IMG/VR virus record: IMGVR_UViG_3300029390_000003
From: a virus
Length of the DNA stretch: 64,000 nt
Reading direction: 5' to 3' (one strand)
In this document: in pieces, positions 8,600-54,809 of the stretch
Numbering within the stretch: position 1 is the first letter of the stretch
Layout: every line of letters begins with the position of its first letter
Position numbers and translations under genes: made by a program
Notes under the pieces: model-generated
Told to the model about the DNA's origin: nothing
What the model saw: the letters and a program-made list of their open reading frames with translations, nothing else
The model's database searches: none

Positions 8600-8874
8600 T
8601 TTCCAACCTCGATTAAAAGACCGCAGAACGGGCAACAATTATAGCCAAGGCTTTCTGGCGACTCTTGCCCTTTAATTTCGCCACCACAACAATCACACAC
8701 CCATGCCGAGCTCTCACAATTATCTACGAACTCAAATACAGTTGTTGGCTGGCGATCTACTTGAAAATCAATAACTCGTTCAACATCTTTTAGAGTTTTG
8801 ATATGTCCAAGATTTCCTTCCAGCAAAAGACAATCTTTTAATCTATCAGCATTAACCAGTTTTATGTAGTTCAT
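8596..8874 (-). CDS. Small zinc-ribbon protein.
   Basis: It carries two CxxC pairs (CDCCGGE...CCPFCG). Confidence 0.3.
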   Translation of the reverse strand: MNYIKLVNADRLKDCLLLEGNLGHIKTLKDVERVIDFQVDRQPTTVFEFVDNCESSAWVCDCCGGEIKGQESPESLGYNCCPFCGLLIEVGK

Positions 8875-13198: not shown

Positions 13199-15394
13199 TT
13201 AGTTATCGCTCAAATGAACCACACGATCCTTGATCTCCTGCGTGCGTCCCTGGTTCCAGAACTGAGTCCCAATAAAACCGCAGGTACGTCGTGCAACATT
13301 CAGTTTATTCTGGTCACGATTACCACAGTTCGGGCATTCCCAAATGAGCTTGCCGTTATCTTCAACAATCTTAATCTCGCCGTCATAGCCACAAACCTGA
13401 CAATAATCAGACTTGATGTTCAGCTCTGCGTAGATAATAGTGTCGTAGATGTATTTGATGACACTCATCACAGCGGGGATGTTGTTGGTCATGTTCGGGC
13501 ATTCAATATAAGAAATCGCTCCTCCGGGAGACAGCTGCTGAAACTCAGACTCAAACTTCAGCTTCTTGAATGCATCAATATGCTCACGAACCACGACATG
13601 ATAGCTATTGGTGATGTAATCATGGTCGGTTACATCTGGAATGATGCCGAACCGCTTCTGCAGGCACTTGGCGAACTTGTAGGTGGTGGATTCCAGCGGG
13701 GTGCCGTAGAGACTGTAATCAATATTTTCTGCTGCCTTCCACTCACTGCACTTGTCGTTCATGTGTTGCATAATCTCAAGAGCAAAAGGTTTTGCTTCAT
13801 CATCAGTATGGCTCTTACCGGTCATGTACTTTACGCATTCATACAGACCTGCGTAACCTAAACTGATGGTTGCATATCCGTCAAACAGCAATTTATCAAT
13901 CTTCTCGCCCTTCTTCAAACGTGCGATTGCACCATGCTGAAAATGAATTGGACTCACATCAGAAGGCGTACCCATCAATCGCTTATACCGAATCTGAAGT
14001 GCTCGATGGCACAGTTCAAGACGCTCATCAAAAATTTCCCAAAACTCAGAAACATCCTTCTTAGAGCTACAAGCAACATCTACCAGATTGATGGTGACAA
14101 CACCGGCATTAAAGCGACCATAGTACTTGTGGCCCTTCTCCCAATTCATGGCACCAGAAACATTCTCGGTGGTTCGATCAGGAGTCAAGAAGCTGCGACA
14201 TCCCATACAGGGGTAGCAAGCACCTTTGTACTCCAACATCTTCTTCTCAGAAATGTAGTCAGGTACAAATCTCTTGGCCGTACATTTAGCTGCCAGTTCA
14301 GTCAGATAGTAATACTTAGAATTATCTCGAATGTTATCTTCTTCCAGCACATAAATCAGCTTTGGGAAAGCCGGAGTAATCCATGCACCAGTCTCATTCT
14401 TCACGCCTTTAATACGCTGACGAAGGACTTCTTCAATGATAATTGCAAGGTCATCACGGGTCTGGCCTTCAGGAACTTCATCCAGATACATAAAAATAGT
14501 AATAAAAGGAGCTTGCCCGTTAGTGGTCATCAAAGTAATAACCTGATACTGAATAGTCTGAACGCCTGCAACGATTTCTTTATGTAAACGCTTCTCTACA
14601 ATTCGATTGATAGTCTCCTGATTTGGCATCTTGTCAATCTCATTGTTTTGAATCATGTCGTAAAACTCCTCATGGACTTCACCCGTAATCTTCTTTCGAG
14701 AGACGTCCACGAAAGGAGCCAAATGAGACAGAGTAATACTCTGACCACCATATTGGTTGGAAGCAACCTGTGCAATAATCTGGGTTGCAATATTGCACGC
14801 TGTAGAGAAACTATGTGGTTTGTCGATTCCAGTGCCAGAAATCACAGTGCCGTTTTGAAGCATGTCTTCCAGATTGACTAGCGAGCAGTTAAACATGTGC
14901 TGGGCAAAATAGTCGGAATCGTGAAAATGAATTCGGCCATCATAGTGAGCGTCCACAATATCTTTCGGGAGAAGCAGATTGAAGCTCAGATCTTTGGAGA
15001 CCTCGCCAGCCATATAGTCACGCTGCACGCTATTCACAACAGGATTTTTGTTGCTGTTTTCCTGCTTGACCTTCTCATTGTCTACATCACAGATGGAAAG
15101 AATTTCGCCATATGCTCGCTGTTTCTCACGAATCTCCTGCCGAAGAATACGCCAGTGACTATAAGCGTCAGCCACATCCGAAAGAGGGCTATTTTTCAAC
15201 TGGTCAATAACCACATCCTGAATCTGCTCTACAGACATCGTATCATGGATGTCCGCGATGTAGTCTGCAATAGCGTTAGATACGCGAGAATCAACTCCTC
15301 CAGTCGTATTCGTCATTGCCTTCTCAATCGCATTTACAATCTTACTTTTATCAAAAGGAACTTTCGTTCCATCGCGTTTAATCACATATTCCAT
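13199..15394 (-). CDS. nrdD: Anaerobic ribonucleoside-triphosphate reductase, class III (start at the internal MEYVIKRDG).
   Basis: There is an ATP-cone at the N-terminus, then the large catalytic domain. The C-terminal Cys cluster (CQVCGYDGEI...CPNCGN) and the glycyl-radical motif RRTCGFIGTQFWNQGR are present. Confidence 0.9.
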   Translation of the reverse strand: MEYVIKRDGTKVPFDKSKIVNAIEKAMTNTTGGVDSRVSNAIADYIADIHDTMSVEQIQDVVIDQLKNSPLSDVADAYSHWRILRQEIREKQRAYGEILSICDVDNEKVKQENSNKNPVVNSVQRDYMAGEVSKDLSFNLLLPKDIVDAHYDGRIHFHDSDYFAQHMFNCSLVNLEDMLQNGTVISGTGIDKPHSFSTACNIATQIIAQVASNQYGGQSITLSHLAPFVDVSRKKITGEVHEEFYDMIQNNEIDKMPNQETINRIVEKRLHKEIVAGVQTIQYQVITLMTTNGQAPFITIFMYLDEVPEGQTRDDLAIIIEEVLRQRIKGVKNETGAWITPAFPKLIYVLEEDNIRDNSKYYYLTELAAKCTAKRFVPDYISEKKMLEYKGACYPCMGCRSFLTPDRTTENVSGAMNWEKGHKYYGRFNAGVVTINLVDVACSSKKDVSEFWEIFDERLELCHRALQIRYKRLMGTPSDVSPIHFQHGAIARLKKGEKIDKLLFDGYATISLGYAGLYECVKYMTGKSHTDDEAKPFALEIMQHMNDKCSEWKAAENIDYSLYGTPLESTTYKFAKCLQKRFGIIPDVTDHDYITNSYHVVVREHIDAFKKLKFESEFQQLSPGGAISYIECPNMTNNIPAVMSVIKYIYDTIIYAELNIKSDYCQVCGYDGEIKIVEDNGKLIWECPNCGNRDQNKLNVARRTCGFIGTQFWNQGRTQEIKDRVVHLSDN

Positions 15395-15405
15395 GCAATC
15401 ACTCC

Positions 15406-16182
15406 TTAATCTTCCAACCAACGATTTTCTGCCACATAGAAAGCTCCAACCGCAACTACCATCAATACGACCCAGAATACCCAAAACCAAATCACTCGTG
15501 TACCAGCTGCAGAAATCATATAATCTCGTGCTTCTTCGATGTTTTTATCCTTAATGAATTGTGCATCATGTATACTTTTATCGCTCAAATTCGCGTATAA
15601 TGTACCACCATAACGAACATCTTTGACATAAAACTCGAACTTTACATGAGAACTGACTTGTACAGTGGTCAGGTACTTGCTGGATGGCATTTTGATGTCA
15701 CCATACTTAAATTCTTTTCCCAGAAACGTTACATTTTTGGAACTGTGCTCTTCTGAGCTGTAATAGTCCCAAGTCCAGTACGTTTCGACTCTTGTTCTTG
15801 TATGGCCTTTACCATCCGTAGTAGTGACAGTTCGTGTATGCATCGTATAGTGCTTTTCTTCGCAATAGATGTACATCCACTGGCCGTCGATACGTGGATC
15901 GCTTACGGTATCTACTGCTTCTAGTGCGCCTTGGCAAAACGCATTACCTACGTTGGTTCTCATTCCATAATCGAACATATTTTCGGACTCAATCGAAATT
16001 GCTGTATTATATTCTTTTTTCTGCTCAAGTGAATCTCTGGTGATATTTCCAGCGATAACGCTACCAAGTATCAGCATAATGAACACAATACCAACACTGA
16101 CGATCAATTCACGATAAGTAATTTCGGCATTACCGATTTCCAAAAAGGTTACCGACTGCCGGTGCCGCCTCATTCCCCTCAT
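15406..16182 (-). CDS. Membrane protein, possibly a partner of LemA (TPM/DUF2207-like position).
   Basis: It has an N-terminal transmembrane helix and a C-terminal multi-helix hydrophobic block (VIWFWVFWVVLMVVAVGAFYV). It lies directly downstream of lemA. The start is uncertain. Confidence 0.35.
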   Translation of the reverse strand: MRGMRRHRQSVTFLEIGNAEITYRELIVSVGIVFIMLILGSVIAGNITRDSLEQKKEYNTAISIESENMFDYGMRTNVGNAFCQGALEAVDTVSDPRIDGQWMYIYCEEKHYTMHTRTVTTTDGKGHTRTRVETYWTWDYYSSEEHSSKNVTFLGKEFKYGDIKMPSSKYLTTVQVSSHVKFEFYVKDVRYGGTLYANLSDKSIHDAQFIKDKNIEEARDYMISAAGTRVIWFWVFWVVLMVVAVGAFYVAENRWLED

Positions 16183-16700: not shown

Positions 16701-17231
16701 TTAAAACTTGACTTCATCGACATGGACTTTAGAGTTCAGCATCGAATGGTCAACCTTATTAACTCCTTTGTTATTCGGAGACATAGCATCATTATGAACA
16801 CTCGGAACCACGGCAGTTTCGATGTTCTGCTCGTATGCGTTTGGACGATAAACACAATCGTTTACCCAACAATTAAGTCTAGGATCGTAAAAATTTCCTT
16901 GGCTGTCTTTTTTCGGCATCGTAGCCAGCTTATCATTTGCCTCATCAGGAATCTTCTTGAGCGTATCTACGACACTTTCGGCAATCTTCTGCTGTTCCTC
17001 TAAAAGCCGGATTTTATAGTCCAAATACCAACGTGCCTTCGTTAAATCTTGAAGCTGAGAATTACCATCTTTGTGCCCTGCCCGACTCAGATACTTACCA
17101 ACATTCCAAAGATAAGCATCCTTGTCCAGTTGCCACTCTCGCAGTACTTTGATGGCCTCGTAGGGATTGTCTGCACCGCCGTAATAAGACGGGTGCTCGA
17201 CGTTCTTCTTAATTTCGTCAAGTGTTTGCAT
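16701..17231 (-). CDS. DUF3310-like phage protein.
   Basis: VEHPSYYGG...EAIKVLREW...GNVGKYLSRAGHK...DLTKARWYL matches my recollection of the DUF3310 pattern, which is common next to thymidylate synthase in phages. Confidence 0.45.
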   Translation of the reverse strand: MQTLDEIKKNVEHPSYYGGADNPYEAIKVLREWQLDKDAYLWNVGKYLSRAGHKDGNSQLQDLTKARWYLDYKIRLLEEQQKIAESVVDTLKKIPDEANDKLATMPKKDSQGNFYDPRLNCWVNDCVYRPNAYEQNIETAVVPSVHNDAMSPNNKGVNKVDHSMLNSKVHVDEVKF

Positions 17232-18009
17232 TTAATGCCTCCTGTTTCAGTTTGTCGTATTTATCACGAATCTCGTGGAGCTTACCACAAGACATCATAC
17301 CTTCAGTACAACCGTTACCACAGCAGTTGGGGCCAGCACACTTAAACAGATGAGGAGCAATCGGATAGACAAGCTTTAGCATCTCAGTTGCAAGTTCCCT
17401 GATTTCAGACTGTGCACGTTCACAGCAACGCAGATTAAAGAAATTATTCAACGAACGAGCGTTCATTGTAACAATCATCTTTGTAGAACAAGCATTTGGA
17501 AGAACAGAACGTGCATTCTCATTTGCAATCTTAGATGCCTTTGCACGTGCCTTTTTCTCAGTCAAACGAGAATCAGCAACCATCAGTTCCTCAGTAATCT
17601 TGTCCTCAAGAATCTGGCACAGGTGCTTATAGGAATATTCAGCAGTCTGAATTGCCTGTTCAAATACCTCTCTTGCTTCGCTATCATCGTCAATAACATC
17701 AGGAATGATGATTTCAGCATTATTCATTCGCACATAGCGCTGACTCTGCACACTGAACGATGCAATGCGATGCCTAGTAATCTGGGCAAGCAAAGACCGG
17801 CTCACACCTTCAATTCCAAAAGTAAAAGTCACATGCTCCGTAGGGCTAGCGTGACCAAGGCTAGAAAGCCGATTCAGAAACTCATCGACCTTCTCATCGG
17901 TCAGTCCATCCATCAGATCCTGAATACTCGAATTGGAGTAACACAGTTTTGCGGCTGCAGCTACTACCTTTTCAGGATCAGGAGTATGTGTAATCAGTTT
18001 AACTACCAT
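17218..18009 (-). CDS. thyX: FAD-dependent thymidylate synthase.
   Basis: The ThyX signature RHRIASFSVQSQRY (RHRxxSxxxxSxR) is present. The N-terminus MVVKLITHTPDPEKVVAAAAKLCYS is typical. Confidence 0.9.
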   Translation of the reverse strand: MVVKLITHTPDPEKVVAAAAKLCYSNSSIQDLMDGLTDEKVDEFLNRLSSLGHASPTEHVTFTFGIEGVSRSLLAQITRHRIASFSVQSQRYVRMNNAEIIIPDVIDDDSEAREVFEQAIQTAEYSYKHLCQILEDKITEELMVADSRLTEKKARAKASKIANENARSVLPNACSTKMIVTMNARSLNNFFNLRCCERAQSEIRELATEMLKLVYPIAPHLFKCAGPNCCGNGCTEGMMSCGKLHEIRDKYDKLKQEALNANT

Positions 18010-21351: not shown

Positions 21352-21369
21352 GTATCCTGCATTATATAG
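21352..21369 (-). promoter_or_regulatory. 18-bp motif, copy b (left arm of the inverted pair).
   Basis: GTATCCTGCATTATATAG. Confidence 0.6.
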
Positions 21370-21413
21370 CTAAAGAGAGAATTTTAAGCCTCCGGGATGG
21401 AGACTTTTTATAG

Positions 21414-21431
21414 CTATATTATACAGGATAC
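21414..21431 (+). promoter_or_regulatory. 18-bp motif, copy c (inverted, right arm).
   Basis: CTATATTATACAGGATAC on the + strand. Confidence 0.6.
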
Positions 21432-40232: not shown

Positions 40233-40250
40233 GTATCCTGTATTATATAG
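40233..40250 (-). promoter_or_regulatory. 18-bp motif, copy e, 12 nt upstream of the methyltransferase ATG.
   Basis: GTATCCTGTATTATATAG. On the gene strand, CTATATAATACAGGATAC gaaAAGGAGGaATG. Confidence 0.6.
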
Positions 40251-40347
40251 CTAAAACTCAGAAAATGAGCGAAAAAATAATAGACGTATCAACGTCATGT
40301 TATTTCGTCGCCTATAAAACAAAAGTTCTAGCAGGTTTTATGTACGC

Positions 40348-40424
40348 CCTATCGGGCTGGTGGGACAGGAGAGATTCGAACTCCCGACCAAGCGGTTATG
40401 AGCCGCCAGCTCTGACCAACTGAG
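40348..40424 (-). tRNA. tRNA-Met (anticodon CAT); could be a lysidine-modified tRNA-Ile instead.
   Basis: The cloverleaf was folded by hand. The acceptor stem is GGGATAG/CTGTCCC, the D-stem GCTC/GAGC, the anticodon loop CTCATAA and the T-loop TTCGAAT. CCA is encoded. Confidence 0.8.
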
Positions 40425-40661
40425 CTACTATCCCATGCAAACGCCGACTTTCGTCGGCGCGATGCCAGCGGAGGAATCGAACCTCATCTCTCGGTGTTTC
40501 CGAGCGCTTTTACCATTAAGCTATCCAGCCGTATACCTCAGAATTTAATTCTCACTATCCAAGCTACGTCGCGTTCCAATATGATCACTCTTGGCAACCA
40601 TGTCGTAACATATAGGTTCCTTTCGGCTCTGAGTAACCGGTGCAGCGTAAGGGGCTGCGTG

Positions 40662-40737
40662 TGGAGCGACTGACGGGGGACGATCCCGCAACATTCAGAT
40701 TGGAAATCTGACGCTCTGCCAATTGAACTACAGTCGC
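40662..40737 (-). tRNA. tRNA-Gly (TCC).
   Basis: The acceptor stem is GCGACTG/CAGTCGC, the anticodon stem TCAGA/TCTGA and the loop TTTCCAA. The T-loop is atypical. CCA is encoded. Confidence 0.7.
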
Positions 40738-41094
40738 ATAAGAACCAACCTAGCAACTGGCATCACTAGGCTGGGATGCTCGGCTTGCAAAGGCACGCTG
40801 CACTCTTTCGAGCGAGCCGAGAATAACGTACATGGATAATTTCGTTAGCCCCTTTCTGGGTGGTATCTTGCACAGGCGCGGCCGGATCTGACCGCTAAAG
40901 ATCCTACCCATACAAGATTGGAGCAGCGAAAGGTAGTCGAAACCTCATCCTCAGCTTGGAAGGCTGATGTACTAGCCGTTGTACGACCGCTGCATGAAAA
41001 CCCAGCTTACAAAGCACTACTGCACCATCACTGGCGAGCTGGGAATAATAGTGGTCAAAGGAGTTCAACCATGAACAACAACGATTCATGACCG

Positions 41095-41176
<82 letters not shown>

Positions 41177-41181
41177 ATAAA

Positions 41182-41252
41182 TTGCGCCAACAGGGGTCGA
41201 ACCTGTGATGGAGGAGTCAAAGTCCTCTGCCTTACCGCTTGGCGATGGCGCA
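41182..41252 (-). tRNA. tRNA-Gln (TTG).
   Basis: It has a U1:A72 acceptor pair as in bacterial tRNA-Gln. The anticodon stem is GAGGA/TCCTC, the loop CTTTGAC, and the T-arm ACAGG-TTCGACC-CCTGT. Confidence 0.8.
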
Positions 41253-41320
41253 TCATATACCCAGCTTACTGGAGAAGCATCCTACTGCCTTACTGCTAAG
41301 GAGCTGGGAATAATAGGAAT

Positions 41321-41396
41321 TGGTCTGAGCGACAAGATTTGAACTTGCGGTCCCCTGTTCCCAAAACAGGTGCGATGCCAACTTCGCTACGCCCAG
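41321..41396 (-). tRNA. tRNA-Pro (TGG).
   Basis: It has a C1:G72 pair as in bacterial tRNA-Pro. The anticodon stem is CCTGT/ACAGG and the loop TTTGGGA. CCA is encoded. Confidence 0.8.
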
Positions 41397-41403
41397 ATAT
41401 AAA

Positions 41404-41486
41404 TGCGCCCGGCGGGACTTGAACCCGCACGCCATCTCTGGCAGAAGATCTTAAGTCTCCTGTGTCTGCGATTCCACCACGGGCGC
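41404..41486 (-). tRNA. tRNA-Leu (TAA), type II.
   Basis: The acceptor stem is GCGCCCG/CGGGCGC and the anticodon loop CTTAAGA. The variable arm forms a hairpin (GCC-AGAGAT-GGC). The T-arm is GCGGG-TTCAAGT-CCCGC. Confidence 0.75.
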
Positions 41487-41686
41487 ATATAAAAGAAGAT
41501 CAGAAACAGCCAACCATTCGTTTTACATTCTAGTTTTCTGGCGAACCGAAGAGTATTTATCCGATAGCTAGTCGGCTTACACCTTATTTCTCTTCTTGTC
41601 TGGCTTGACGTCCTTTACCGGTATGACGTCTTTCCGGTCGCCAATGTACGGCCAATCCCCGAACGAGCTAGAACAACTGATCTTCA

Positions 41687-41771
41687 TGGTAGGGATAATC
41701 GGATTTGAACCGATACGTCTTTCGACACTTGAGTTTGAATCAAGCGTGGCTGCCAATTTCACCATATCCCC
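41687..41771 (-). tRNA. tRNA-Leu (CAA), type II.
   Basis: The acceptor stem is GGGGATA/TATCCCT and the anticodon loop TTCAAAC. The variable arm forms a hairpin. The T-arm is ATCGG-TTCAAAT-CCGAT. CCA is encoded. Confidence 0.8.
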
Positions 41772-41888: not shown

Positions 41889-44108
41889 TTAGCTCTTCTG
41901 CTGACTTGCGTAGAACTCATTCCGCAGCTGAATAATACCCTTCTTGCAGAAAGACTCTTGATCTTTCTCTCGTTGTTCACGCATCCAACCATAGAACAGG
42001 TTATCCTCGGCAGTAAACAACTTTGCGGTATTTTCATAATAGCCACGTTTTTGAACGCTCTGCATGACACCACGCAAGAACTTCCAGTGCTTATAATACG
42101 GAAGCTTCAGCTTAAACATGAAATTATTGCTGTCTCGCAAAACAAAGCCTTCAACGTGTTCAAAACCATGATGCAGATAGTTCTCGTTCATGACTTCTTC
42201 GTACCAAGGATAGAATTCACTCCAGTTCTCAAAGGTTTTAACCTTCTCCTTAATCTGCAGATGACACTTCTCGGCTACACGCTTCAAATCATCATAATCC
42301 ATTACACTGAAATTCATATCATTTGCAATAATATCCAGCAAAACAATGTGCGGTTTCTTATATTCGATGATATGTGCATCATTCACAGGATCAATCACCT
42401 CGAAGATGATGGAGCCATTCTCTTTTGCAACTTCTTTCAGATTCTTACGATCTTCATCAGAAGTCGTATCCATGAGAATCTTTCGGAACATATCTGCAAA
42501 AGGCCCATCAGGAGTGGATTTACTTGCAATGAACAGACCATCCTGTTCTGCATCATACGAAATGATACCAAGAAATCCGTTCTCTTTTAGATATGCAGTC
42601 ACCGGGAACTTCAAAGTGTTCTGTAGGTTTCCAATTCTCGTTTCATTCCGCTCATCAACCGCAAAGAACTTATCATAGCTTCGAGCTACAATCTTATTCG
42701 TCTTTGTGTTAATGAACAACCCTCTTGCTTTGGTAGAAACCTCATCCCAGTGCTTCTTATAAAATGCTTCACGAGAGAAGTTGAAAGAAGAAATATCTCC
42801 GAATCGCTTCTCAAACACATATTTGCTTTGACGCATCTTACTAACAAGTTCTGCGTTATCGAACTCAGTTTTCATTTCAACGGCAGTTTCAGTCTTTGGC
42901 TCCTCTTTTCGGAATACATCATTCTTGGTTTCTACGCATTTGATAGGCTGACCGTGTTCAAGCTCCACACAACGAAGATATCCACCAAACTCGATTTTGC
43001 CTTCAAGATTGTAGCACCGATGACCCATATCAATAGGAACATCCTGTACATTTCGATGGCCGAAGATCTGAATATAGCTATCCGGCATCGACTTTTCCCA
43101 AGACTCAGCCACGGTCAGTATATCAGGATAGCGGCCTACGCCTTTAATCATCTGATCCGCAGACACGAACGGAAGAAAATAAGGAAGATAGCTCAGACCA
43201 CCGTGACTTACGAAATACCGCTTACCATCATACTCAAAGTAGACACACTGGCCGACTCTGGAATAGATCTTACGAGCAGTGTTCTTGTCAATACCGGCTT
43301 TAAAGAGCTGCGGACGAGTGTAGTTTGCAAACTCTTCACTTTGAACCGGTTTATCACGCCCCCACTTGTTCAGCCAATGCTCGTGGTTCCCTTCCAAAAG
43401 GATCACATTCTTGCGGTTGTTATTTACAACATCACACAAGAACTTGAATACCTCAACGTTTTCGATGCCACGATCGAGATAATCACCAACGAAGATATAA
43501 AGCTCGTCGTCCTTCATCTCACCAAGGTATTCACTCAAGCAGGTATAGCAGCCATGAATATCACCGATGATATGTATCTTTTTCCACTGGTTAAAGTCAT
43601 TCGGGCAGTAGTTCAAATCGGACATCACATCCGTAGTAGAAGGAAGAACTGTCACGCCAGAAGGAACTTTTTGAGTAGCAAACCGAGCGTACATCTTATC
43701 AATAGCCGCTTCAGGAACTCGCTTTAGCCATTCTCTCTGAGCGTTTCTTCGTTTGCATTCCTCGATCGGAAGGTCCGTCATATCAATAACATACATCCGA
43801 TAACGATACTGTTTTGCAAGATTCTTATAACAATTCATTTCGACCGTCTTGGAATTCGTTGCATCAATCACAGTAAACTCGCCATGGCTCATCCGCACCT
43901 CAAGCAGTTTGAAAAGCATCTCCCATACAACATCATCATTCTGCTGAGAAATCTCCATCTGCCCATCAGGTGTTTCCTGTGCGCTCTGGCACATAAGGCG
44001 AAGTGTATCAACACTCAATACGTACTGCTCAAGATTATGCTCTTTAATATAGGTGGACTTCCCGCAACCGGGTGCTCCACGGAACAGTAAAAGTGTTCTC
44101 ATCTGCAT
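41889..44108 (-). CDS. Pnkp-like RNA end-healing and sealing enzyme: P-loop polynucleotide kinase, calcineurin-type phosphatase, and a C-terminal nucleotidyltransferase (ligase-like) domain.
   Basis: The N-terminus has Walker A (FRGAPGCGKST). The middle has the binuclear phosphoesterase motifs IIGDIHGCY, GDYLDRG and GNHE. The C-terminal 350 aa carry a KxNG lysine motif (AYLKENGFLGII) like ligase/adenylyltransferase motif I. The domain order matches bacterial Pnkp. Confidence 0.7.
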   Translation of the reverse strand: MQMRTLLLFRGAPGCGKSTYIKEHNLEQYVLSVDTLRLMCQSAQETPDGQMEISQQNDDVVWEMLFKLLEVRMSHGEFTVIDATNSKTVEMNCYKNLAKQYRYRMYVIDMTDLPIEECKRRNAQREWLKRVPEAAIDKMYARFATQKVPSGVTVLPSTTDVMSDLNYCPNDFNQWKKIHIIGDIHGCYTCLSEYLGEMKDDELYIFVGDYLDRGIENVEVFKFLCDVVNNNRKNVILLEGNHEHWLNKWGRDKPVQSEEFANYTRPQLFKAGIDKNTARKIYSRVGQCVYFEYDGKRYFVSHGGLSYLPYFLPFVSADQMIKGVGRYPDILTVAESWEKSMPDSYIQIFGHRNVQDVPIDMGHRCYNLEGKIEFGGYLRCVELEHGQPIKCVETKNDVFRKEEPKTETAVEMKTEFDNAELVSKMRQSKYVFEKRFGDISSFNFSREAFYKKHWDEVSTKARGLFINTKTNKIVARSYDKFFAVDERNETRIGNLQNTLKFPVTAYLKENGFLGIISYDAEQDGLFIASKSTPDGPFADMFRKILMDTTSDEDRKNLKEVAKENGSIIFEVIDPVNDAHIIEYKKPHIVLLDIIANDMNFSVMDYDDLKRVAEKCHLQIKEKVKTFENWSEFYPWYEEVMNENYLHHGFEHVEGFVLRDSNNFMFKLKLPYYKHWKFLRGVMQSVQKRGYYENTAKLFTAEDNLFYGWMREQREKDQESFCKKGIIQLRNEFYASQQKS

Positions 44109-44123
44109 CTCCCTTTCTAATAG

Positions 44124-44141
44124 GTATCCTGTGTTATATAG
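44124..44141 (-). promoter_or_regulatory. 18-bp motif, copy f, 16 nt upstream of the Pnkp-like start.
   Basis: GTATCCTGTGTTATATAG. It is followed on the gene strand by tattagaaAGGGAGatgcagATG. Confidence 0.6.
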
Positions 44142-44152
44142 TTAGCATGTTA

Positions 44153-44180
44153 AAATGAAGGGGCCGAAGCCCCCTGTTTT
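44153..44180 (-). terminator. Bidirectional rho-independent terminator after the 44180..45106 gene.
   Basis: On the minus strand, the stop codon TAA is followed by aaaCAGGGGGCttcgGCCCCttcatttt. The + strand reads GGGGCcgaaGCCCCctgttttt. Confidence 0.7.
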
Positions 44181-45106
44181 TAATTTTCATGGAAATATTC
44201 AACCCAACCTTTATATCCTTGCCGGAAACTAAGATAGGCAACTTTACTGCACTTTCTTCCGATAATGTCCGCAAGAGGACCTTTACCATTTCCGAAACTA
44301 AGTTCTGCAAGATTAAATTTTGGATGAGTTTTACAGTAGTTATAAACCTTGATATACTCACAATTTCTGGCTAAATATCTTTGATCTAAGGTTTTTGAAT
44401 GATGCCTTTTTTCGAGGATATCGTTCAACCTCGAAAAATAGACATGAATTGAAATTATAGACGTCTTTGGATCACTGTTTACACCGGGTTTATCCTTCGT
44501 TTTGCGTAGGATATAATCGCCATTCATGACATAAAATGTTCTATAACCGCTCTTATTGGGGGCATCATACTGTTTCATCTCGTAACATTGCTTGATAATA
44601 TCCATTAACCTTGCGTCAACATCAGTCTTATCAAGAACGGTATTAGATTCAAAATCCACATCGTTAATTGTTAGATTAGAAATCTCATCGGAAGTAAGAC
44701 CAATCCAGTACAAAACAGCAATTACGTTCATACGAATCTGATATGGCTCTTCGTACTTATTTAAGAAGTCAACAAATTCGTCAACCGACGCAAAATAACT
44801 GTCATTGTACATATCATCTGCGCTTACATCGCTCTCTGAAAAGTCAGCCAGATCATACATGCTTGTTTCGTTTTCACTTTTGATGTAGCCTGTGATTATT
44901 GACTTCACATTTTTAAACGAACGACTCGAATTCACCCAATTATATTTGGCAAACATCTTTACGAAATCATCTTTTGTGAAGTCAAACAACTCATACCCAC
45001 GCTCGGCCTCGTAATCCATGACGTGACGCATCGTCGATGCAACAAACTCACCGCTTCTATCAGAATACTTTTCGGCAAAAGCTTTGATTTTTTCTTCAGT
45101 AAGCAT
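44180..45106 (-). CDS. Hypothetical protein.
   Basis: This 308-aa ORF has a clean stop followed by a terminator hairpin. No confident domain was found. Confidence 0.3.
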   Translation of the reverse strand: MLTEEKIKAFAEKYSDRSGEFVASTMRHVMDYEAERGYELFDFTKDDFVKMFAKYNWVNSSRSFKNVKSIITGYIKSENETSMYDLADFSESDVSADDMYNDSYFASVDEFVDFLNKYEEPYQIRMNVIAVLYWIGLTSDEISNLTINDVDFESNTVLDKTDVDARLMDIIKQCYEMKQYDAPNKSGYRTFYVMNGDYILRKTKDKPGVNSDPKTSIISIHVYFSRLNDILEKRHHSKTLDQRYLARNCEYIKVYNYCKTHPKFNLAELSFGNGKGPLADIIGRKCSKVAYLSFRQGYKGWVEYFHEN

Positions 45107-45159
45107 AGTGGCACACTCCTTCTTATTATATGTAGTGTACCATTAAACCTTATAAAAAA

Positions 45160-45579
45160 TCAAGCAAATGCGGCAAAATTCTGAAATTCCATGGTATGTT
45201 GTACGCCGCTCAGGAATGCTGCAAGCAAAAACGGTTCATCCTTGCATCTTGCCATTGCGATCATATTCATCTGACGCTCCGACAAGACACCAAGTTTTTT
45301 AATGAACTGTCCTTTGTTAAGTGTATCAGTCTCTTCACATAGAACGATACTATCAACCTCTAGGAAATCACAATCTTCCTTTGAGAGTAGAACATGAACC
45401 GGAGAGCGCTTGTATATTCTGGAAGACAACGGATTCCCTTTAATTGTTGGACTAAAGAAGTTGCGCTTATTGTTGCTCGTCACAACGAACGGTCGAATAC
45501 CGCGCTGCTGATGACCTGTCGCATTGGATAGATCAACCAACCAAACCTCTCCGACCTTTGGGTCAATATTGTTGTCCAT
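45160..45579 (-). CDS. MazF/PemK-family endoribonuclease-like protein, with no antitoxin partner evident.
   Basis: The N-terminal pattern GEVWLVDLSNATGHQQRGIRPFVVTSNN and the later SIVLCEETDTLNK...GVLSERQMNMI match the PemK/MazF fold signature. Confidence 0.55.
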   Translation of the reverse strand: MDNNIDPKVGEVWLVDLSNATGHQQRGIRPFVVTSNNKRNFFSPTIKGNPLSSRIYKRSPVHVLLSKEDCDFLEVDSIVLCEETDTLNKGQFIKKLGVLSERQMNMIAMARCKDEPFLLAAFLSGVQHTMEFQNFAAFA

Positions 45580-45618
45580 AGTCTTTCTCCTCTATAATAG
45601 TGTAGCTCCGTTCCATAG

Positions 45619-45636
45619 CTATATTATACAGGATAC
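45619..45636 (+). promoter_or_regulatory. 18-bp motif, copy g (inverted orientation), upstream of the MazF-like gene.
   Basis: CTATATTATACAGGATAC on the + strand. Confidence 0.5.
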
Positions 45637-45670
45637 CTTTACAGAAGTCAATAGGTTTTCAAAAATATTT

Positions 45671-45997
45671 TTAGTGCCCGTACAACTCTGGATTCTCTGA
45701 TACGAACACGCTGGTGTTATCGAATATCATCTCATACGCTTTCTCTTTATCGCCCGGCCTAAACTCAACCCTCCTTACTTCGTGACATTCTTGCCGCAAC
45801 TCAATATGACTTTCGTTTCCAAAAAATCCAATGCCTTTGACAATCCCATGCGTCTCTACGCCAATGTCGTCCATCTTTTTGCAGATCATGTGAACATCCA
45901 CACCATTGCAAATAAAACAGACCCACACTCGCTTTTTTCTTATGTACTTCAAAAAGTTCTCAACCTGTATAACTCCCAAAACCTTTTTCTCACTCAT
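45671..45997 (-). CDS. Hypothetical protein.
   Basis: A 108-aa ORF upstream of the MazF-like gene. It does not resemble an AbrB/MazE swapped-hairpin fold. Confidence 0.3.
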   Translation of the reverse strand: MSEKKVLGVIQVENFLKYIRKKRVWVCFICNGVDVHMICKKMDDIGVETHGIVKGIGFFGNESHIELRQECHEVRRVEFRPGDKEKAYEMIFDNTSVFVSENPELYGH

Positions 45998-46095
45998 CGA
46001 AATACCGCCTTCCGATCACATAAACAACTTCCAAGATATATTATACACATCTTTTTGTTTTCGTCAATATGTACCACACCATTTTGTTGTGCTAC

Positions 46096-46132
46096 TTTAT
46101 CAAAATTTTAGATGATGCCATTTACTCAGCAT
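46096..46132 (-). terminator. Hairpin terminator overlapping the stop codon of 46122..46748.
   Basis: The stem GATGATGC / GCATCATC is followed by taaaattttgat on the minus strand. Confidence 0.5.
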
Positions 46133-46748
46133 CATCCACAACCAGCTTCGCGTCATAATAAAACCTGTGTGCGCCAAATTGCCCAGCAAAGGTTGCTCCG
46201 CGCTCGTGCCAACTGCCTGGAGCAGCCGCCGGGGTTACAAACCATTGAATAGGTTTGTCTGAAATCTTAGCGCCGTAATCAAACACCATAGACACAGCCA
46301 GTTCGTTCTCTGCCGTCACCTTCCTATTATATAAGGAACTATAACCATACTTCTTAAAGACCTGCTGGATGGTTAGACTATCAAGTACAGCGGAATCATA
46401 AAGGCATTGGGCCACAGCCATCTGGCCTTCCAAACTGTCAGCACCTGCTTCACAAGCAACGATCTGCTCCGCAAGAGCACGTTCGTCATCAGTGAGTTTA
46501 TGTTTGCCCTGACCAAAGTTTACAATCCGCATCTCAGTAACGGTTTCTACAATGACTTCTGGCTCCTTTTCCTCTTGCTGCACTACACTCACTGCCGGAG
46601 GGCTATTATTATAAAGGTATGAATCACCATGATTCTGAATTACCGGACTGATCTTCGATACAAGATTCCCCGTCAGCAGGCACATTATACACACAATAGC
46701 AATACTTTGCTCACGATTTATTAACAAATTAGAGTTAATAAGAATCAC
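46122..46748 (-). CDS. SleB-like cell-wall hydrolase with an N-terminal signal anchor.
   Basis: The N-terminal transmembrane segment is followed by DERALAEQIVACEAGADSLEGQMAVAQCLYDSAV, which matches the Hydrolase_2 / SleB motif. Confidence 0.55.
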   Translation of the reverse strand: MILINSNLLINREQSIAIVCIMCLLTGNLVSKISPVIQNHGDSYLYNNSPPAVSVVQQEEKEPEVIVETVTEMRIVNFGQGKHKLTDDERALAEQIVACEAGADSLEGQMAVAQCLYDSAVLDSLTIQQVFKKYGYSSLYNRKVTAENELAVSMVFDYGAKISDKPIQWFVTPAAAPGSWHERGATFAGQFGAHRFYYDAKLVVDDAE

Positions 46749-46772
46749 TTCCTTTCAAAAATATTGGTTTTA

Positions 46773-47525
46773 TCAGATCTTTAAAGACTCCTCATTTACG
46801 GTCATCACAAGCTCGTTGACCCGCTTCCAATCAACATTGTCCGGCAGGTAAGTCTCGCTCTTGTCAACTGACAATCTGCTTTCATAGGCCGGAATCAGTT
46901 GCTGACGAATCTCTTTGTAATCATATTCACCGTTGCGAAGCTGCGTCAGGAAGTTATGATCATTGTCTCGATAGGTTTTAATTTCACCTTTTTCCAAGAT
47001 GTCAAAGAGCATCAGGTATACACGAACTGCATTCATTACCGTCTTGTGCATTTTCTTTGAATTATGGTAGATTGGATCTTTGTCTAATGTATCAGACTTC
47101 TGAATCAGCTTGCCTGCAAAACCTCCAAACGAGTAAATCACACGCTTTGAAAGGAATAGGTTTTTGTTGTCCATAAGTAGCTGCGTCATTGGGTTATAGC
47201 TAATAACGAGTTCATCGGCATTTCCTAACTGTTCCAGCATATTGGGATTTCCACTGCACATCAATTTCACAGCTTTGTTAAAGCTATAAATCGTTGTATC
47301 GGTCTGAGTGTCCACATAATGCTCAAACTCACCGAGACCAAGAAGGTCTTCTTTTGAATTCAATGCTACACCTCGAATGTCAAGATCTGAGCCCTCAACA
47401 TTTGTCCCGTAAGCATGACTGCCACCGACCGTTACGAACATCATATGCTTGCCAAGATGCTCATTCTCCCGAAGAAAACTATATTCTGGGAAGCATAACG
47501 CTCCAAGCAATTCATTTCTTGTCAT
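46773..47525 (-). CDS. Pol-beta-superfamily nucleotidyltransferase, PF10127/RlaP-like.
   Basis: VTVGGSHAYGTNVEGSDLDIRGVA is the GS-x-YG ... SDxDxRG active-site pattern of this nucleotidyltransferase family. Confidence 0.5.
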   Translation of the reverse strand: MTRNELLGALCFPEYSFLRENEHLGKHMMFVTVGGSHAYGTNVEGSDLDIRGVALNSKEDLLGLGEFEHYVDTQTDTTIYSFNKAVKLMCSGNPNMLEQLGNADELVISYNPMTQLLMDNKNLFLSKRVIYSFGGFAGKLIQKSDTLDKDPIYHNSKKMHKTVMNAVRVYLMLFDILEKGEIKTYRDNDHNFLTQLRNGEYDYKEIRQQLIPAYESRLSVDKSETYLPDNVDWKRVNELVMTVNEESLKI

Positions 47526-49058: not shown

Positions 49059-49577
49059 TTACTCCTCTACAATATCCTGATTCACAGAATTCCATACCTC
49101 GGTCGAAGTGCTGTCATTCTCATCAGATAGGCGATCAATCCAAGCGTTCAACACTTCTCTATACACAGTCATATTCGGGCAAAAATGACTGTTGGTAAAT
49201 ACCGGCATATCGTCATTGCACAAGATTCTCATGATGGCAGCACACACAGCGGCAGATCTCGATACACCAGCAGCACAATTCACGCAGAACCAATCGGTTT
49301 TATCTGCTTCGTGATTATCCAGAACAAAATTCACGATATCCTTAGCCTGAATATCAGTGATACAGGTGCCTTCTAAATCAGTAGTGCAATCATCAAACTT
49401 CAGCGGGAGAAAAGTAATATTGCCCTCACACTTATGAAAATCAATATGATGACCATTAGCTTCAGTGATTGAGATAAACCGTATCCGTTCAAAATGTGGC
49501 TGTCGGATAAAGTCTTCTGCATCTTCTGCACTCATCACCGAGAATTTCCATTTTCTTCGATACATAGTAACAATCAT
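49059..49577 (-). CDS. Cys-based (dual-specificity / PTP-like) phosphatase.
   Basis: The P-loop VNCAAGVSRSAAV (CxxGxxRS) is present, and the general-acid Asp lies upstream. Confidence 0.55.
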   Translation of the reverse strand: MIVTMYRRKWKFSVMSAEDAEDFIRQPHFERIRFISITEANGHHIDFHKCEGNITFLPLKFDDCTTDLEGTCITDIQAKDIVNFVLDNHEADKTDWFCVNCAAGVSRSAAVCAAIMRILCNDDMPVFTNSHFCPNMTVYREVLNAWIDRLSDENDSTSTEVWNSVNQDIVEE

Positions 49578-51538: not shown

Positions 51539-52357
51539 TCAGTCTTCCAAGCTGTGTGTATTCACACCATAAAAAGTCTTCTTATAATATTCTTTTGCCT
51601 TATCCTCATCAAAACCAACGTACCGTAATGTAATATCCTGACTACTATGATTCAACTGACCCTGAATCCAAGACAATGCCTGGTTATCATCCTTATTAAG
51701 ACACATCTCACGATAACCAAATGTCTTACGGCAAGAATGAGACGCAATCTTATAATTAAGATTCAAATCTCTACCAGCATTACGAAGGATACGAGCAAAA
51801 GAATCAACATCAATAGGATCACCGGCTTTTTTGGGTTCTGCAATATGAGGAATACCAGTTTTCCCATCTCCACCATTTGTCCTCAACGACTTTTTCCAAC
51901 TCCCCTGCCGAGACGGAAACATCCAATCGTCATATCCAAGATTTGCAATCTTAATGTACGTTTCAACGATGTCTCTCGCTTCTGGAGTAAGAATGATTTC
52001 ACGATATTTGGAAGTCTTTTCTTCGACGATGCAAGTTCCTGCGTCCTCAACCACCTCAATTTTTCCATTATAAAGACAGTAAGACATATCAGAAACTTTC
52101 AATTTAAGTAAGTCACTAGCACGCAACCCAGTTGCAATGCCGACATTAAATAGACACCAATTGCGATATTGCTTTTTATCCCAGAAGTATTCCGAAATCA
52201 TTTGAACATCATCCAAGCTTCTAATTGGAGAAATATTACGCTTACGCTTCTGCTTACTTTTTGTAACACCACGCTTTTTCGCCGGAACGGAAGGTTTAGG
52301 ATTAAAATAGACCAATTTAGATATCTGTTCTTCTTTTCTTTCAACAACTGCACTCAT
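51539..52357 (-). CDS. Tyrosine recombinase (second integrase-family gene).
   Basis: It has the catalytic Arg (TGLRASDLLKLK), then HSCRKTFGY, then LNHSSQDITLRYVG (His/Arg/Tyr triad). Confidence 0.75.
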   Translation of the reverse strand: MSAVVERKEEQISKLVYFNPKPSVPAKKRGVTKSKQKRKRNISPIRSLDDVQMISEYFWDKKQYRNWCLFNVGIATGLRASDLLKLKVSDMSYCLYNGKIEVVEDAGTCIVEEKTSKYREIILTPEARDIVETYIKIANLGYDDWMFPSRQGSWKKSLRTNGGDGKTGIPHIAEPKKAGDPIDVDSFARILRNAGRDLNLNYKIASHSCRKTFGYREMCLNKDDNQALSWIQGQLNHSSQDITLRYVGFDEDKAKEYYKKTFYGVNTHSLED

Positions 52358-53492
52358 CACATTCACCTCAAATCCCATACTTTAAACAGTATTTTCCGTA
52401 AGACAATCCCTCGGCATCCGCAAGTTTAATAACATCGCTGAATGTCAAGATTGGCTTTTTGCTTCGTTCCTGTTCTCGTCTCTTTCTTTCATAAGCCTGT
52501 CGCGCTTCGATTCTTACTATCCTGCGGCAATGATCACAATACTCATGATTTATAGCAGCCGGCGCACCACAAACCTTACAGTGTCCGTTTCCTCTGATAG
52601 TAGGCATACCTTACACCTCGAATTCATCAATCTTCCAGTGGTGACGATAATAACTTTCACCACTACAAACAACAGATGCTTCCGCAGCTTCGCACCATGT
52701 CTCGTCATTACTTACAGGCTGTAGGTCATTCTTGCTTTCATTAAACAGGAATACCATTTTATCAATTGCTTTGACTCTATCCTTTGTGACCATAATCACA
52801 TTATCTTCTGCGTAAAAGTCACTGGAATCAATGCATTCGTGTAAAACATAGACCTTCATTTTTTATGTACCTCAATTCTTTTCAAATAGATCATTACGAA
52901 CCTTCGGAGTAAATTGACGAGTACCAAGCTGCTCAATAGCAGTCTCTAGCTTGCCATCTCCCCATTCTCTGGTTTCTGTATTCATAACGATCTCAAGCAA
53001 AAGCTTTGCGTCCTTAGCTTCTCTACGCTTCCGGCGAGCCTTTTTAAGCTCTGCCATAAGCTGATAACCTTGCGCTGCATTCACGGTCTTAAACTCAATA
53101 GCATGTTCTAGATCATCAATCTCATCACTTGCGGAAGTCAAATCACCGTACACTTTTGAATACATCTCTTTCAGATTACACATGGTTTTATCTGTGATAA
53201 CCAAATTCTTTTTAAGTTCCGCCAGCCATTCAGAATCTTCCATGTGAAATGCGTATGTATTTGACTTTACAGCCGGAGCCGTTATATTCGGACTCTTGCC
53301 TGCAATGGTAGCTTCATCCATAGACTTCGGTGCGTAGTGCCCGTTTTTATACCCGGCGGGAAGCTTGTTGATCTCACAAATCGCCAGTCCCTTGGATTCA
53401 AACTGTAAAGCCAGATTGATATCACAGGTGGCGCAGATTCGACCTCCCTTCCGTTTCATAATATAGTTGTGACCATTCGATATTACGTACCT

Positions 53493-54809
53493 TTACTTAT
53501 TCTCCTGCTCCTTCATCAGCTGCTTCACAGTCTTCTTAAACAGCGCGAGGTTCTTTTCGTTTTCAATAAACACCTTAGTCTTCGGATTCGGTGCTTTACC
53601 GTGTGCCTTTTCGTAAGCCACAAACAAATTATTCATTTTCTTATAGCCAATACACTCGTAAATCAGAGTATAAGTGTGCTTATACTGTGGCTTATCGCCA
53701 AGTTTTTCTGCCAGAGGAAGCATAATGGGGAAAAGAATTTTTGCCGTTTCGCTCTGCTTCTTGGGCTTTTCCTCCACAACCGGCTCAGACTCAACTTCCT
53801 TAGCTTCAACATCAATCACAGGAGCAACACAGACATCTACTTCAGGAGCTGCATCAACAACTTTAGCTTCAGGCAGAGCCTTCTGTTCAACAGCTTCTTC
53901 CTTCTTCTTATTGATTGCCTCAGTATACAGATCCTCAACCAGAGCGCCAAAGATAGACTTATACATTTTGCTTGCCTCGACCACATCAATCGTAGGAATA
54001 TGACCAGTACGACCAGTTCTTGCGCAATACTTTCTACGTTCTTCCTCAATAACAAAGGTATAGACACGATTCATGTATTCGTAAACATCACGAAACACAT
54101 CCTGAACCTTCATCTCATTGATTTCCGCAATCACATTGATACGTTCATACATCTTCTTACGCCAGTCACTCATCACATCCTTACGAGGAGTGAAGTTTCT
54201 GGTAGAACGAATCGCATCATCCATCTGCTTGTCCTTAATCTGATGGACACACTGAGATACGCTACTAATCACATTCAGTGCTTCATTGCTGGTAGCACGG
54301 GCTTCCTCAATCTGTTCACTGAGATCTTTGCGAGTAGAATTGAGTTCGCTCTGAAGATTCTTCATGCTATCAAACAGAGCGTGAAGTCTTACGTCAATAA
54401 ACTCCTTGCTCAACGCAGCATCCATCTTAGGAGTAGCCAGAACGGAATCACCACGCATCAAAGATTCCATAATGTCCCAGCAGAAATCCATGAACGCATC
54501 TGCTTTCGGCTGACGTGACAGACGGCAGATTTCCATAACACCACGCAAACTGTAAACAATATATTCACGTTCCTTCGTGATTCCGCCCTCAACTTTCCTC
54601 AGTTTGAGGAATGTTGAAAGAGGGTCAAGACGATCCGTATTCTTAACATGGATGTTTTGAATTGCCTTATTAGGATTATTGTACTCTAGCGCCGCACCAA
54701 TTTGTTCACGGGTCATGTAATACTGGTGCTTGTCATTCTGGTACACATCCACATTCAGTGCGCCGAAGGGCTTAGAGGTTATTACGGTCATAGGATTGTT
54801 GGTAGTCAT
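53493..54809 (-). CDS. Bro-N / KilA-C family antirepressor-like protein.
   Basis: The N-terminal Bro-N pattern is present (FGALNVDVYQNDKHQYYMTREQIGAALEY...KAIQNIH). The C-terminal region is coiled-coil-rich. Confidence 0.6.
   Translation of the reverse strand: MTTNNPMTVITSKPFGALNVDVYQNDKHQYYMTREQIGAALEYNNPNKAIQNIHVKNTDRLDPLSTFLKLRKVEGGITKEREYIVYSLRGVMEICRLSRQPKADAFMDFCWDIMESLMRGDSVLATPKMDAALSKEFIDVRLHALFDSMKNLQSELNSTRKDLSEQIEEARATSNEALNVISSVSQCVHQIKDKQMDDAIRSTRNFTPRKDVMSDWRKKMYERINVIAEINEMKVQDVFRDVYEYMNRVYTFVIEEERRKYCARTGRTGHIPTIDVVEASKMYKSIFGALVEDLYTEAINKKKEEAVEQKALPEAKVVDAAPEVDVCVAPVIDVEAKEVESEPVVEEKPKKQSETAKILFPIMLPLAEKLGDKPQYKHTYTLIYECIGYKKMNNLFVAYEKAHGKAPNPKTKVFIENEKNLALFKKTVKQLMKEQENK

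Follow-up and report, generated by a model that had tools for sequence, protein, structure and literature searches.

The 64,000-nucleotide stretch of DNA analysed here (the window) comes from IMG/VR virus record IMGVR_UViG_3300029390_000003, and the gene in question is a mazF-like gene at 45160-45579 on the minus strand, which starts with ATG and codes for a protein of 139 amino acids (aa). Upstream of it, on the same strand, an open reading frame (ORF) at 45671-45997 codes for a hypervariable protein of 108 aa, X108, and downstream a gene at 44180-45106, also on the minus strand, codes for a 308-aa protein like MrpR/YopR/SroF, presumably of integrase fold, a putative master repressor whose start lies 53 nt past the mazF stop codon. 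When the window was set beside ten divergent lineages (L001, L002-4, L085, L086, L088, L089 and L095-L098), the triplet formed by an X gene (101-127 aa), mazF and a gene of 308-348 aa was found in 11 of the 11. Judged from their sequences, these lineages are ~130-kb SPbeta-like temperate phages of the gut, and their mazF is more probably part of the lysis-lysogeny switch than a stray toxin or one half of an RNA cut-and-repair pair.

The MazF-like protein

The initial annotation of the window had read this ORF as a homolog of the MazF/PemK family of RNases, and its coordinates, strand and length proved exact. The family assignment held as well. Residues 8-109 match the Pfam family PF02452 (PemK_toxin) with 70.1 bits (E 2e-19; cut-off, 23.1 bits), and the protein matches PHROG 1936, 'MazF-like growth inhibitor', with an E value of 7.5e-22. 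Solitary MazF-like proteins of phages are thus already an annotation class, filed by PHROG in the category 'host takeover'. The top matches among Protein Data Bank (PDB) sequences were S. aureus MazF and B. subtilis EndoA/MazF (E 5e-14 to 5e-11). An AlphaFold2 (AF2) model built with 34 family members reached a predicted local distance difference test score (pLDDT) of 86.3 and a predicted template modelling score (pTM) of 0.78, and a Foldseek search of this model against the PDB returned solved MazF structures with target-normalised template modelling (TM) scores of 0.82-0.88, MazF-family toxins making up 50 of the 50 best matches. On sequence and model together, the 139-aa ORF is a genuine homologue of endoribonucleases of the MazF/PemK fold, with the predicted SH3-like barrel and C-terminal helix. 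The core (residues 8-109) is followed by a two-helix C-terminal extension (110-139) that is specific to the family. The motif of this extension, ARxxDEPFLxxAFLxGVQxTxxFxxFxxYA, is conserved across the family and modelled as helices 116-123 and 130-138 by AF2; it lies beyond the canonical C-terminal helix and is missing from B. subtilis MazF and the other phage MazF-like proteins compared.

Of the catalytic Arg and Thr singled out in the initial annotation, the Arg is conserved and the Thr site keeps a hydroxyl residue. Arg25 and Thr48 are described as the key residues of B. subtilis MazF (MazF-Bs) (PMC7354611). The first aligns with R29 of the window protein (R29 also in E. coli MazF), which is invariant in the 34 family members, and the second with S52, a position held by Ser or Thr in every homologue. 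Ser is functional at the Thr site of M. tuberculosis MazF7, where its mutation impairs activity (PMC7354611). Eight sites have been described as highly conserved in MazFs of the ACA/UAC type, namely G6, P15, G18, E20, R25, P26, N36 and R85 (PMC8634880), and six of the eight are kept here (G10, G22, R29, P30, N40 and K89); the departures are at P15, replaced by N19, and at E20, replaced by Gln24. G22, P30, N40 and K89 are conserved. The predicted fold and the catalytic dyad place the protein among the MazFs, with one conserved loop residue changed, and from these features we infer that it is an RNase.

Selection on mazF was estimated from 59 distinct IMG/VR haplotypes, drawn from the top 80 loci ranked by MazF identity. 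The ratio of nonsynonymous to synonymous divergence (dN/dS) was 0.025 (pS 0.255, pN 0.0076), against 0.10-0.15 for three neighbouring genes. In the comparison of the window with the ten divergent lineages, which is free of the bias of selecting the top 80 loci by MazF, MazF identity was 61-71%; the replication proteins YorF-like and AAA_24 reached 46-49%, the Pnkp-like protein 52-61% and the MrpR-like protein 21-32%, and X108 was not detectable across the ten lineages by tblastn. Purifying selection this strong speaks clearly against a degenerate decoy, and the idea that the phage might carry MazF as an inactive decoy, put forward in the initial annotation, is supported neither by the dN/dS nor by an identity above that of the replication proteins. 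The selection in itself shows only that the protein is functional.

The repressor-like neighbour and the putative mazF transcription unit

Seven of the seven tested family members of the gene downstream of mazF matched the Pfam domain MrpR_N_CB (best E 1.2e-8) and one matched MrpR_C_cat. The family profile of the 308-aa protein aligned with Tsamsa gp94, a clear member of the MrpR family whose two MrpR domain matches score 91 and 59 bits, with an hhalign probability of 95.6% (E 1e-8), and with SPbeta YopR with a probability of 70% (E 4e-5) over 243 columns; no match was found when PDB sequences were searched with this profile. From these profile comparisons the 308-aa protein appears to be distantly homologous to MrpR/YopR/SroF, which has the integrase fold and acts as master repressor in SPbeta-like phages (PMC10516654; bioRxiv 10.1101/2025.11.27.690993). 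A C-terminal Y..W..F/Y motif of the MrpR-like proteins was considered as a MazE-like Trp tail and rejected, as the same spacing occurs in YopR and Tsamsa gp94 with L or M in place of W; it is more simply read as the last helix of the integrase fold.

The signals around the two genes fit a unit that starts in front of mazF and ends behind the repressor-like gene. The promoter-like sequence P2 (TTGACT-17-TATAAT, 11/12; 45623-45651, minus strand) lies in the 91-nt gap between X108 and mazF, directly upstream of the latter, and another, P1 (TTGACG-16-TATAAT, 11/12; 46040-46067, minus strand) lies upstream of X108, preceded by a terminator-like hairpin (46109-46138). P1 and P2 are the two best sigma-70-type matches within 41.7-48.5 kb. 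The TTGAC of the -35 box is invariant, with a -10 box ~17 nt downstream, in 7/7 lineages with an aligned X-mazF gap, and the mazF promoter was found again in L001 and L089. mazF has a strong Shine-Dalgarno sequence. Between mazF and the repressor-like gene no terminator was predicted, and the spacer measures 53 nt in the window and 50-79 nt in the other lineages. Four nt past the stop of the MrpR-like gene there is a terminator-like hairpin, GGGGC-TTCG-GCCCC with a T-rich tail (44159-44175, minus strand), which is likely to be the end of the transcription unit. It appears, then, that mazF and the repressor-like gene share one transcript; a unit running from P2 through mazF to the mrpR-like gene, with X108 under its own promoter, is the simplest reading of these signals, though transcription from P1 may read through. 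A LexA (Cheo) box was not found near the module, and the two matches in the window are no more than chance would give.

The promoter of mazF also carries a repeated element of 21 nt, a candidate operator. One copy, GTATCCTGTATAATATAGCTA (45616-45636, minus strand), overlaps the -10 box of P2, and a partial inverted copy, TATTATAGAGGA (45588-45599, minus strand), overlaps the ribosome-binding site of mazF. A copy with 3 mismatches (44124-44144, plus strand) lies between the terminator of the MrpR-like gene and the ribosome-binding site of the Pnkp-like gene, and one with 1 mismatch (40233-40253, plus strand) just upstream of the ribosome-binding site of a C5-methyltransferase gene. An inverted pair at 21352-21431 (minus strand) flanks a transcription start: the forward copy (21411-21431, minus strand) lies within a perfect TTGACA-17-TATAAT promoter and the reverse copy (21352-21372, plus strand) 38 nt downstream, beside the site at which ribosomes would bind the message for the ATP-dependent DNA ligase. 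In all, 5 copies occur over 24 kb of the window, against 0 expected, and each is intergenic or lies across a gene start, at the promoters or ribosome-binding sites of the DNA ligase, C5 methyltransferase, Pnkp-like and mazF genes. L089 has a distinct, lineage-specific repeated element at the -10 box of its mazF and again past its repressor gene; it was the only other lineage in which a repeated operator-like element was found, the remaining loci being too short or giving just AT-rich chance matches. By analogy, the 21-nt element looks like the counterpart of the SPBRE/Phi3TRE operators of MrpR/SroF, which suggests that the mazF promoter is part of the repressor regulon and that the 308-aa protein may bind this candidate operator.

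The other flank of mazF was examined as the place of an antitoxin. An ORF of 101-127 aa occupies the slot of X108 in 11/11 lineages. X108 itself had no significant match in Pfam, PHROGs, NCBIfam or PADLOC. Inside one phage population, where MazF is 97-100% identical, the homologues of X108 share 76-93% identity; between lineages the figure is 10-26%, and the alignment of the family across lineages has zero invariant columns; the fold predicted for it differs from those of known MazF antitoxins. In L086, L095 and L097 the X gene and an HTH_3 (XRE/cI-like) gene are transcribed divergently, as is typical where a cro or antirepressor gene stands. A relationship of X108 to YopN was considered and rejected (hhalign probability 0.1%). 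The ORFs of the window were also compared by phmmer --max with YosL, YopM, YopN, YopO, YopQ, YopS and B. subtilis MazE, and nothing was found under an E value of 0.2. An Rfam scan of 43900-46300 gave no match and no tandem repeats were found in 43900-46800; therefore, a type III (ToxIN-like) RNA antitoxin is not present either. An antitoxin of the AbrB, RHH or PemI type, encoded just upstream in the same operon and as a rule overlapping the toxin gene or only a few nt away, is the defining feature of a type II MazEF/PemIK module, and what occupies its slot is an ORF 91 nt away from mazF, with a conserved promoter inside the gap and no family match; the mazF locus is therefore not a canonical module of this type.

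These results bear out the statement of the initial annotation that mazF has no recognisable antitoxin: X108 is without family, no MazE- or YosL-like ORF occurs in the 64 kb of the window, and neither an RNA repeat array nor an Rfam match was detected. The same annotation had called the gene solitary and its neighbours unlike MazE/PemI. No MazE or PemI was in fact detected nearby, but the word solitary is misleading, and it was overlooked that the downstream 308-aa ORF is a probable homologue of the MrpR/SroF family. Since mazF invariably precedes such a gene, and does so with a conserved promoter of its own, a lysogeny module is the relevant context.

Phage type, distribution and other genes

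All genes of the window are on the minus strand and its G+C (GC) content is 35-48%. Replication genes of the SPbeta type are present, coding for PolIII-alpha, RecJ-like, RecD2-like, AAA_24 and YorF-like/SSB-like proteins together with a C5 methyltransferase; a primase-like protein and an ATP-dependent DNA ligase are also encoded. The YorF-like protein has relatives in Geobacillus E3, Tsamsa-like, Lactococcus 949-like and B. subtilis phages, and the Pfam families YorF and Phage_SPbeta_YorH are present at homologous loci. A set of nucleotide genes suited to an anaerobe, coding for NrdD and its radical-SAM activase, ThyX and a FolD-type methylene-tetrahydrofolate dehydrogenase/cyclohydrolase, was noticed on the minus strand (13199-15490, 8045-8638, 17218-18009 and 1686-2513). 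Near the start of the window lies a 406-aa tyrosine integrase of the Tn916 type, with Integrase_DNA and Phage_integrase domains (264-1484, minus strand), which from its domains is probably the true integrase. A 279-aa protein with a Phage_integrase domain only (51539-52378, minus strand), followed by a DUF6291 protein, is a second tyrosine recombinase besides the MrpR-like one, and its position may parallel that of SPbeta YopP (SroD) upstream of the repressor.

Near-identical DNA was not found among GenBank phages, and in GTDB representative genomes MazF had only one match, 27% identical, in a metagenome-assembled Clostridium genome from horse faeces. IMG/VR contains at least 137 related contigs of about 110-150 kb. 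An identical MazF has been deposited as CBL02487.1/WP_015538008.1, 'Growth inhibitor [Faecalibacterium prausnitzii SL3/3]', and occurs on at least 1000 contigs, the longest of 3.2 Mb, a length that points to a prophage state. From these records the phage is an SPbeta-like temperate prophage that is very common in the human gut. The GC content of F. prausnitzii is ~56%, against only 35-48% in the window; unless phage and host differ very strongly in composition, the assignment of the host or the assembly needs to be checked.

Several further genes of the region can be named. A 739-aa Pnkp-like protein (41889-44108, minus strand) combines a P-loop kinase, a calcineurin-type metallophosphatase and an RNA ligase of the T4 Rnl1 type and matches PHROG 8238 end to end. 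The bacterial Pnkp family TIGR04075 matches its N-terminal 300 residues only (81 bits, against a cut-off of 750 bits), and no Hen1 partner was noticed near the gene. Directly downstream of it, 8 genes for tRNAs (Met, Gly x2, Leu x3, Gln and Pro) form an array at 40358-41771 (minus strand), and an RlaP nucleotidyltransferase is encoded at 46773-47525. The tRNA array and RlaP make up a cluster for RNA repair and tRNA replacement, whose probable target is the anticodon nucleases of the host. Genes upstream of the module also code for a 208-aa protein of PHROG 18750 (46122-46748, minus strand) that has a hydrophobic N-terminus and a C-terminal part conserved to 56-61% in three further lineages, a 172-aa protein (49059-49577, minus strand) in which a dual-specificity-phosphatase signature is weak (20.6 bits, under the cut-off), and a 438-aa, antirepressor-like protein with a Bro-N domain (53493-54809, minus strand). 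In L002-L004 the X-mazF-mrpR genes are preceded, at 2099-5361, by a set for nicotinamide adenine dinucleotide (NAD) salvage (a phosphoribosyltransferase-like protein, NAMPT/NAPRTase and NAD synthase), which recalls the ways in which phages counter defence systems that deplete NAD.

Proposed role of mazF and comparison with known systems

In phage phi3T, the activity of the host MazF promotes lysogeny and is controlled by AimX, YosL and phi3T_93: AimX and YosL bind and block MazF, a product of the repressor (sro) operon releases MazF from MazE, and MazF is reported to degrade most phage mRNAs with the exception of the sro operon (PMC10769878; bioRxiv 10.1101/2023.04.27.537455; 10.1101/2025.11.27.690993). 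By analogy, we propose tentatively, giving it a probability of roughly 40%, that the phage of the window supplies its own RNase for the lysogeny arm, one that is made together with the repressor, autoregulated via the operator-like element and directed at lytic transcripts. MazF would be the post-transcriptional partner of the repressor, both coming from one transcript, and would cleave phage transcripts of the lytic phase, and perhaps those of the host as well, which would allow lysogeny to be established and kept tight. The role of the RNase would be that seen in phi3T, with the enzyme encoded by the phage instead of borrowed from the host. MazF would be limited by autoregulation of its promoter through the 21-nt element at the -10 box and the ribosome-binding site, and also by an inhibitor not recognisable by sequence or fold, for which X108, the 308-aa repressor itself and a host factor are the candidates.

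A number of observations weigh against this proposal. The 308-aa protein of the window scores 20.8 bits on MrpR_N_CB, under the Pfam gathering score of 27 bits, and its presumed repressor function is attributed to it by homology. Weak promoter-like sites (9/12) occur in the mazF-repressor spacers of L001 and L089, so that separate transcription of the repressor is possible. UACAU, the site of B. subtilis and S. aureus MazF, occurs 23 times in the mazF-mrpR operons of the 11 lineages against 20.8 expected; an avoidance of this site was thus rejected and, since it is not depleted, there is no sign that the operon mRNA is spared. The most depleted pentamers in these operons were G-rich, a composition effect, and the depletion of ACATG (1 observed, 11.4 expected) fails correction for multiple tests. 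No arbitrium genes were seen among the ORFs scanned in these 64 kb of a ~130-kb genome, in which AimR and AimP were not specifically searched for. The classical fate of genes linked to a repressor is also a different one, as illustrated by cI-rexA-rexB of lambda, where defence genes are co-transcribed with the prophage repressor. Furthermore, the Glu of the beta1-beta2 loop (E20 of MazF-Bs and MazF-Da, E24 of E. coli MazF) is replaced by a nearly invariant Gln24 in the family. MazF-Da E20A is inactive and E. coli MazF E24A is impaired in substrate recognition and cleavage (PMC8634880), and because Ala mutants at this Glu lose activity, the activity or the specificity of the window MazF may be altered. 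Finally, SPbeta's own lysogenization is MazF-independent (Guler preprint), which makes the precedent specific to phi3T.

The main alternative, which follows the classical pattern, is that mazF is a defence or exclusion toxin expressed in the lysogen, a 'moron' held inactive by an unrecognised antitoxin such as X108 or the MrpR-like protein. A superinfecting phage would trigger the toxin, which would then cut RNA to abort or block the new infection and might also stabilise the prophage by addiction. We regard this as possible but doubtful. Its place in the repressor transcription unit and its strong promoter would fit such a toxin, and so would the hypervariability of X108, which resembles that of a protein in an arms race and occurs in the antitoxin slot. 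MazF is also far more conserved than the lineage-specific repressor, which would point to a generic target. MazEF systems act as phage defences, and that of phi3T restricts antitoxin-less phages (Guler preprint). However, PADLOC had no match for MazF, X108 or the 308-aa protein, and some features of X108 speak against an antitoxin: it has no conserved motif to fit the highly conserved surface of MazF, it is separated from mazF by a promoter and its predicted fold is unlike those of known MazF antitoxins. Moreover, the strict linkage to the MrpR-like gene in 11 lineages exceeds what is usual for a mobile moron, the MazF-like genes of other phages being found in varied contexts. On a separate reading, the antitoxin would be the MrpR/SroF-like repressor itself, in a toxin-repressor module of reversed order in which the intact repressor would silence lytic promoters and at the same time neutralise MazF; once an antirepressor had removed the repressor at induction, or as long as the repressor had not yet built up on infection, free MazF would reshape the transcriptome. 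If this were true, the status of the repressor would be hard-wired to an RNase, but we know of no precedent for an integrase-fold antitoxin and consider this arrangement improbable.

Further explanations are less likely. As an RNase for early host take-over, the shut-off idea of the initial annotation, driven by a strong early promoter, MazF would degrade host mRNA to free ribosomes and nucleotides; the near-consensus sigma-A promoter, the Shine-Dalgarno sequence and the category of PHROG 1936 agree with this, as do the solitary MazF-like proteins without annotated MazE of other phages, some of them not evidently temperate, and the 21-nt element at promoters of genes for DNA metabolism, a hint at a shared early regulon. 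It is nevertheless unlikely, since it leaves unexplained why mazF stands immediately in front of the repressor homologue in each of 11 lineages, being co-expressed with a repressor of lysogeny follows a timing logic opposite to that of lytic shut-off, and UACAU occurs at the expected frequency in the phage's own genes, with no visible self-protection if the specificity is like that of B. subtilis MazF. It is more unlikely still, and in our judgement very improbable, that the MazF fold is a dead decoy or adaptor kept for binding only, for instance to titrate host MazE or to serve as a co-repressor subunit via its extra C-terminal helices. A harmless protein would need no antitoxin, the C-terminal extension is conserved and family-specific, and Gln stands at the loop site where Ala mutants impair MazF-Da and E. 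coli MazF. But Glu to Gln is a conservative change, other phage MazF-like proteins have E, K, R or T at this site and yet keep Arg-Pro and Thr/Ser, and pure binding would not require that the catalytic Arg, the Ser/Thr, G22, P30, N40 and K89 be kept and most of them be invariant. Least probable of all, and hardly to be expected, is the pairing with the Pnkp-like enzyme suggested in the initial annotation, in an extended form by which MazF would break specific RNAs (e.g. tRNAs) and the Pnkp-like protein, RlaP and the tRNA array would reverse or bypass the damage in a reversible RNA switch. The chemistry is sound, the 2',3'-cyclic-phosphate and 5'-OH ends left by MazF being those that Pnkp acts on, and the window has the Pnkp-like gene, RlaP and the 8 tRNA genes within 4 kb of mazF. 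The synteny, however, does not favour this pairing. Nine lineages (window included) have loci that reach beyond the repressor gene. In four of them mazF-mrpR is followed by a Pnkp-type gene, trifunctional in the window, L002 and L089 and reduced to the kinase-phosphatase part in L096; in L001, L085, L086, L095 and L097 the place is taken by different genes (such as Band_7 and LemA). As its adjacency is not conserved, Pnkp is not the constant partner of MazF; the repressor homologue is. The terminator-like hairpin also stands between the mazF unit and the Pnkp-like gene, which carries a separate copy of the 21-nt element, and phage RNA-repair modules are sufficiently explained as counter-defence against host anticodon nucleases.

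The steering of lysogeny through host MazEF in phi3T was surprising and, to our knowledge, has so far been confined to Bacillus. The window belongs to a clade of very common SPbeta-like prophages of the human gut with a highly conserved MazF in the putative repressor transcription unit. If our proposal of a phage-encoded lysogeny RNase is right, RNase-assisted lysogeny would be an ancient and general trait of this phage group and not a peculiarity of Bacillus, the two genes would be a simple system in which to study the cooperation of an RNase with a repressor, and the locus would be a natural example of a MazF tolerated without a canonical antitoxin. If mazF is a defence toxin instead, a keystone bacterium of the gut would have in it a prevalent immunity gene carried by a prophage. 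In full-text literature searches we found no report of a MazF gene linked to a repressor of the MrpR/SroF type.

With the type II toxins of the UACAU type, B. subtilis MazF (EndoA/YdcE), S. aureus MazF and B. cereus BC0266, the window MazF shares the fold (TM 0.82-0.88, 30-36% identity) and the equivalents of the Arg, Pro, Thr/Ser, G18, N36 and K/R85; it differs from them in having no MazE upstream, Gln for the loop Glu and ~30 extra C-terminal residues that form two helices, and its gene is phage-borne, with a repressor gene after it rather than an antitoxin gene before it. The phages of Firmicutes with proteins of PHROG 1936 (Enterocloster PMBT24, NatCom/Heliusvirales, Lactobacillus Satyr and Psychrobacillus Perkons) have, like the window, a MazF-fold gene without an annotated MazE. 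Their proteins are at most 40% identical to the window MazF and lack the C-terminal extension, and their genes lie in unrelated contexts, for example in structural or replication modules, none of them beside an MrpR-like gene; a general rule that phage MazF-like genes adjoin MrpR-like genes is thus false for Perkons, PMBT24, NatCom and Satyr. Lambda cI-rexAB resembles the window in having a potentially toxic effector in the repressor transcription unit, but the proteins are unrelated and rexAB follows cI, whereas mazF precedes the repressor gene. A further likeness is to phi3T and SPbeta, with their AimX, YosL, phi3T_93/YopN or YopM and the sroABCDEF operon ending in SroF/MrpR. The window shares with them the broad phage type, a putative homologue of the integrase-fold repressor, dispersed long operator-like repeats and a MazF RNase tied to the repressor operon, while no homologue of YosL, YopM or YopN is detectable in it. 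phi3T uses the MazF of its host and contributes modulators only, whereas the phage of the window, which has a non-Bacillus host, encodes MazF itself, in a slot directly upstream of the repressor gene that corresponds to the position of sroE/yopQ in SPbeta.

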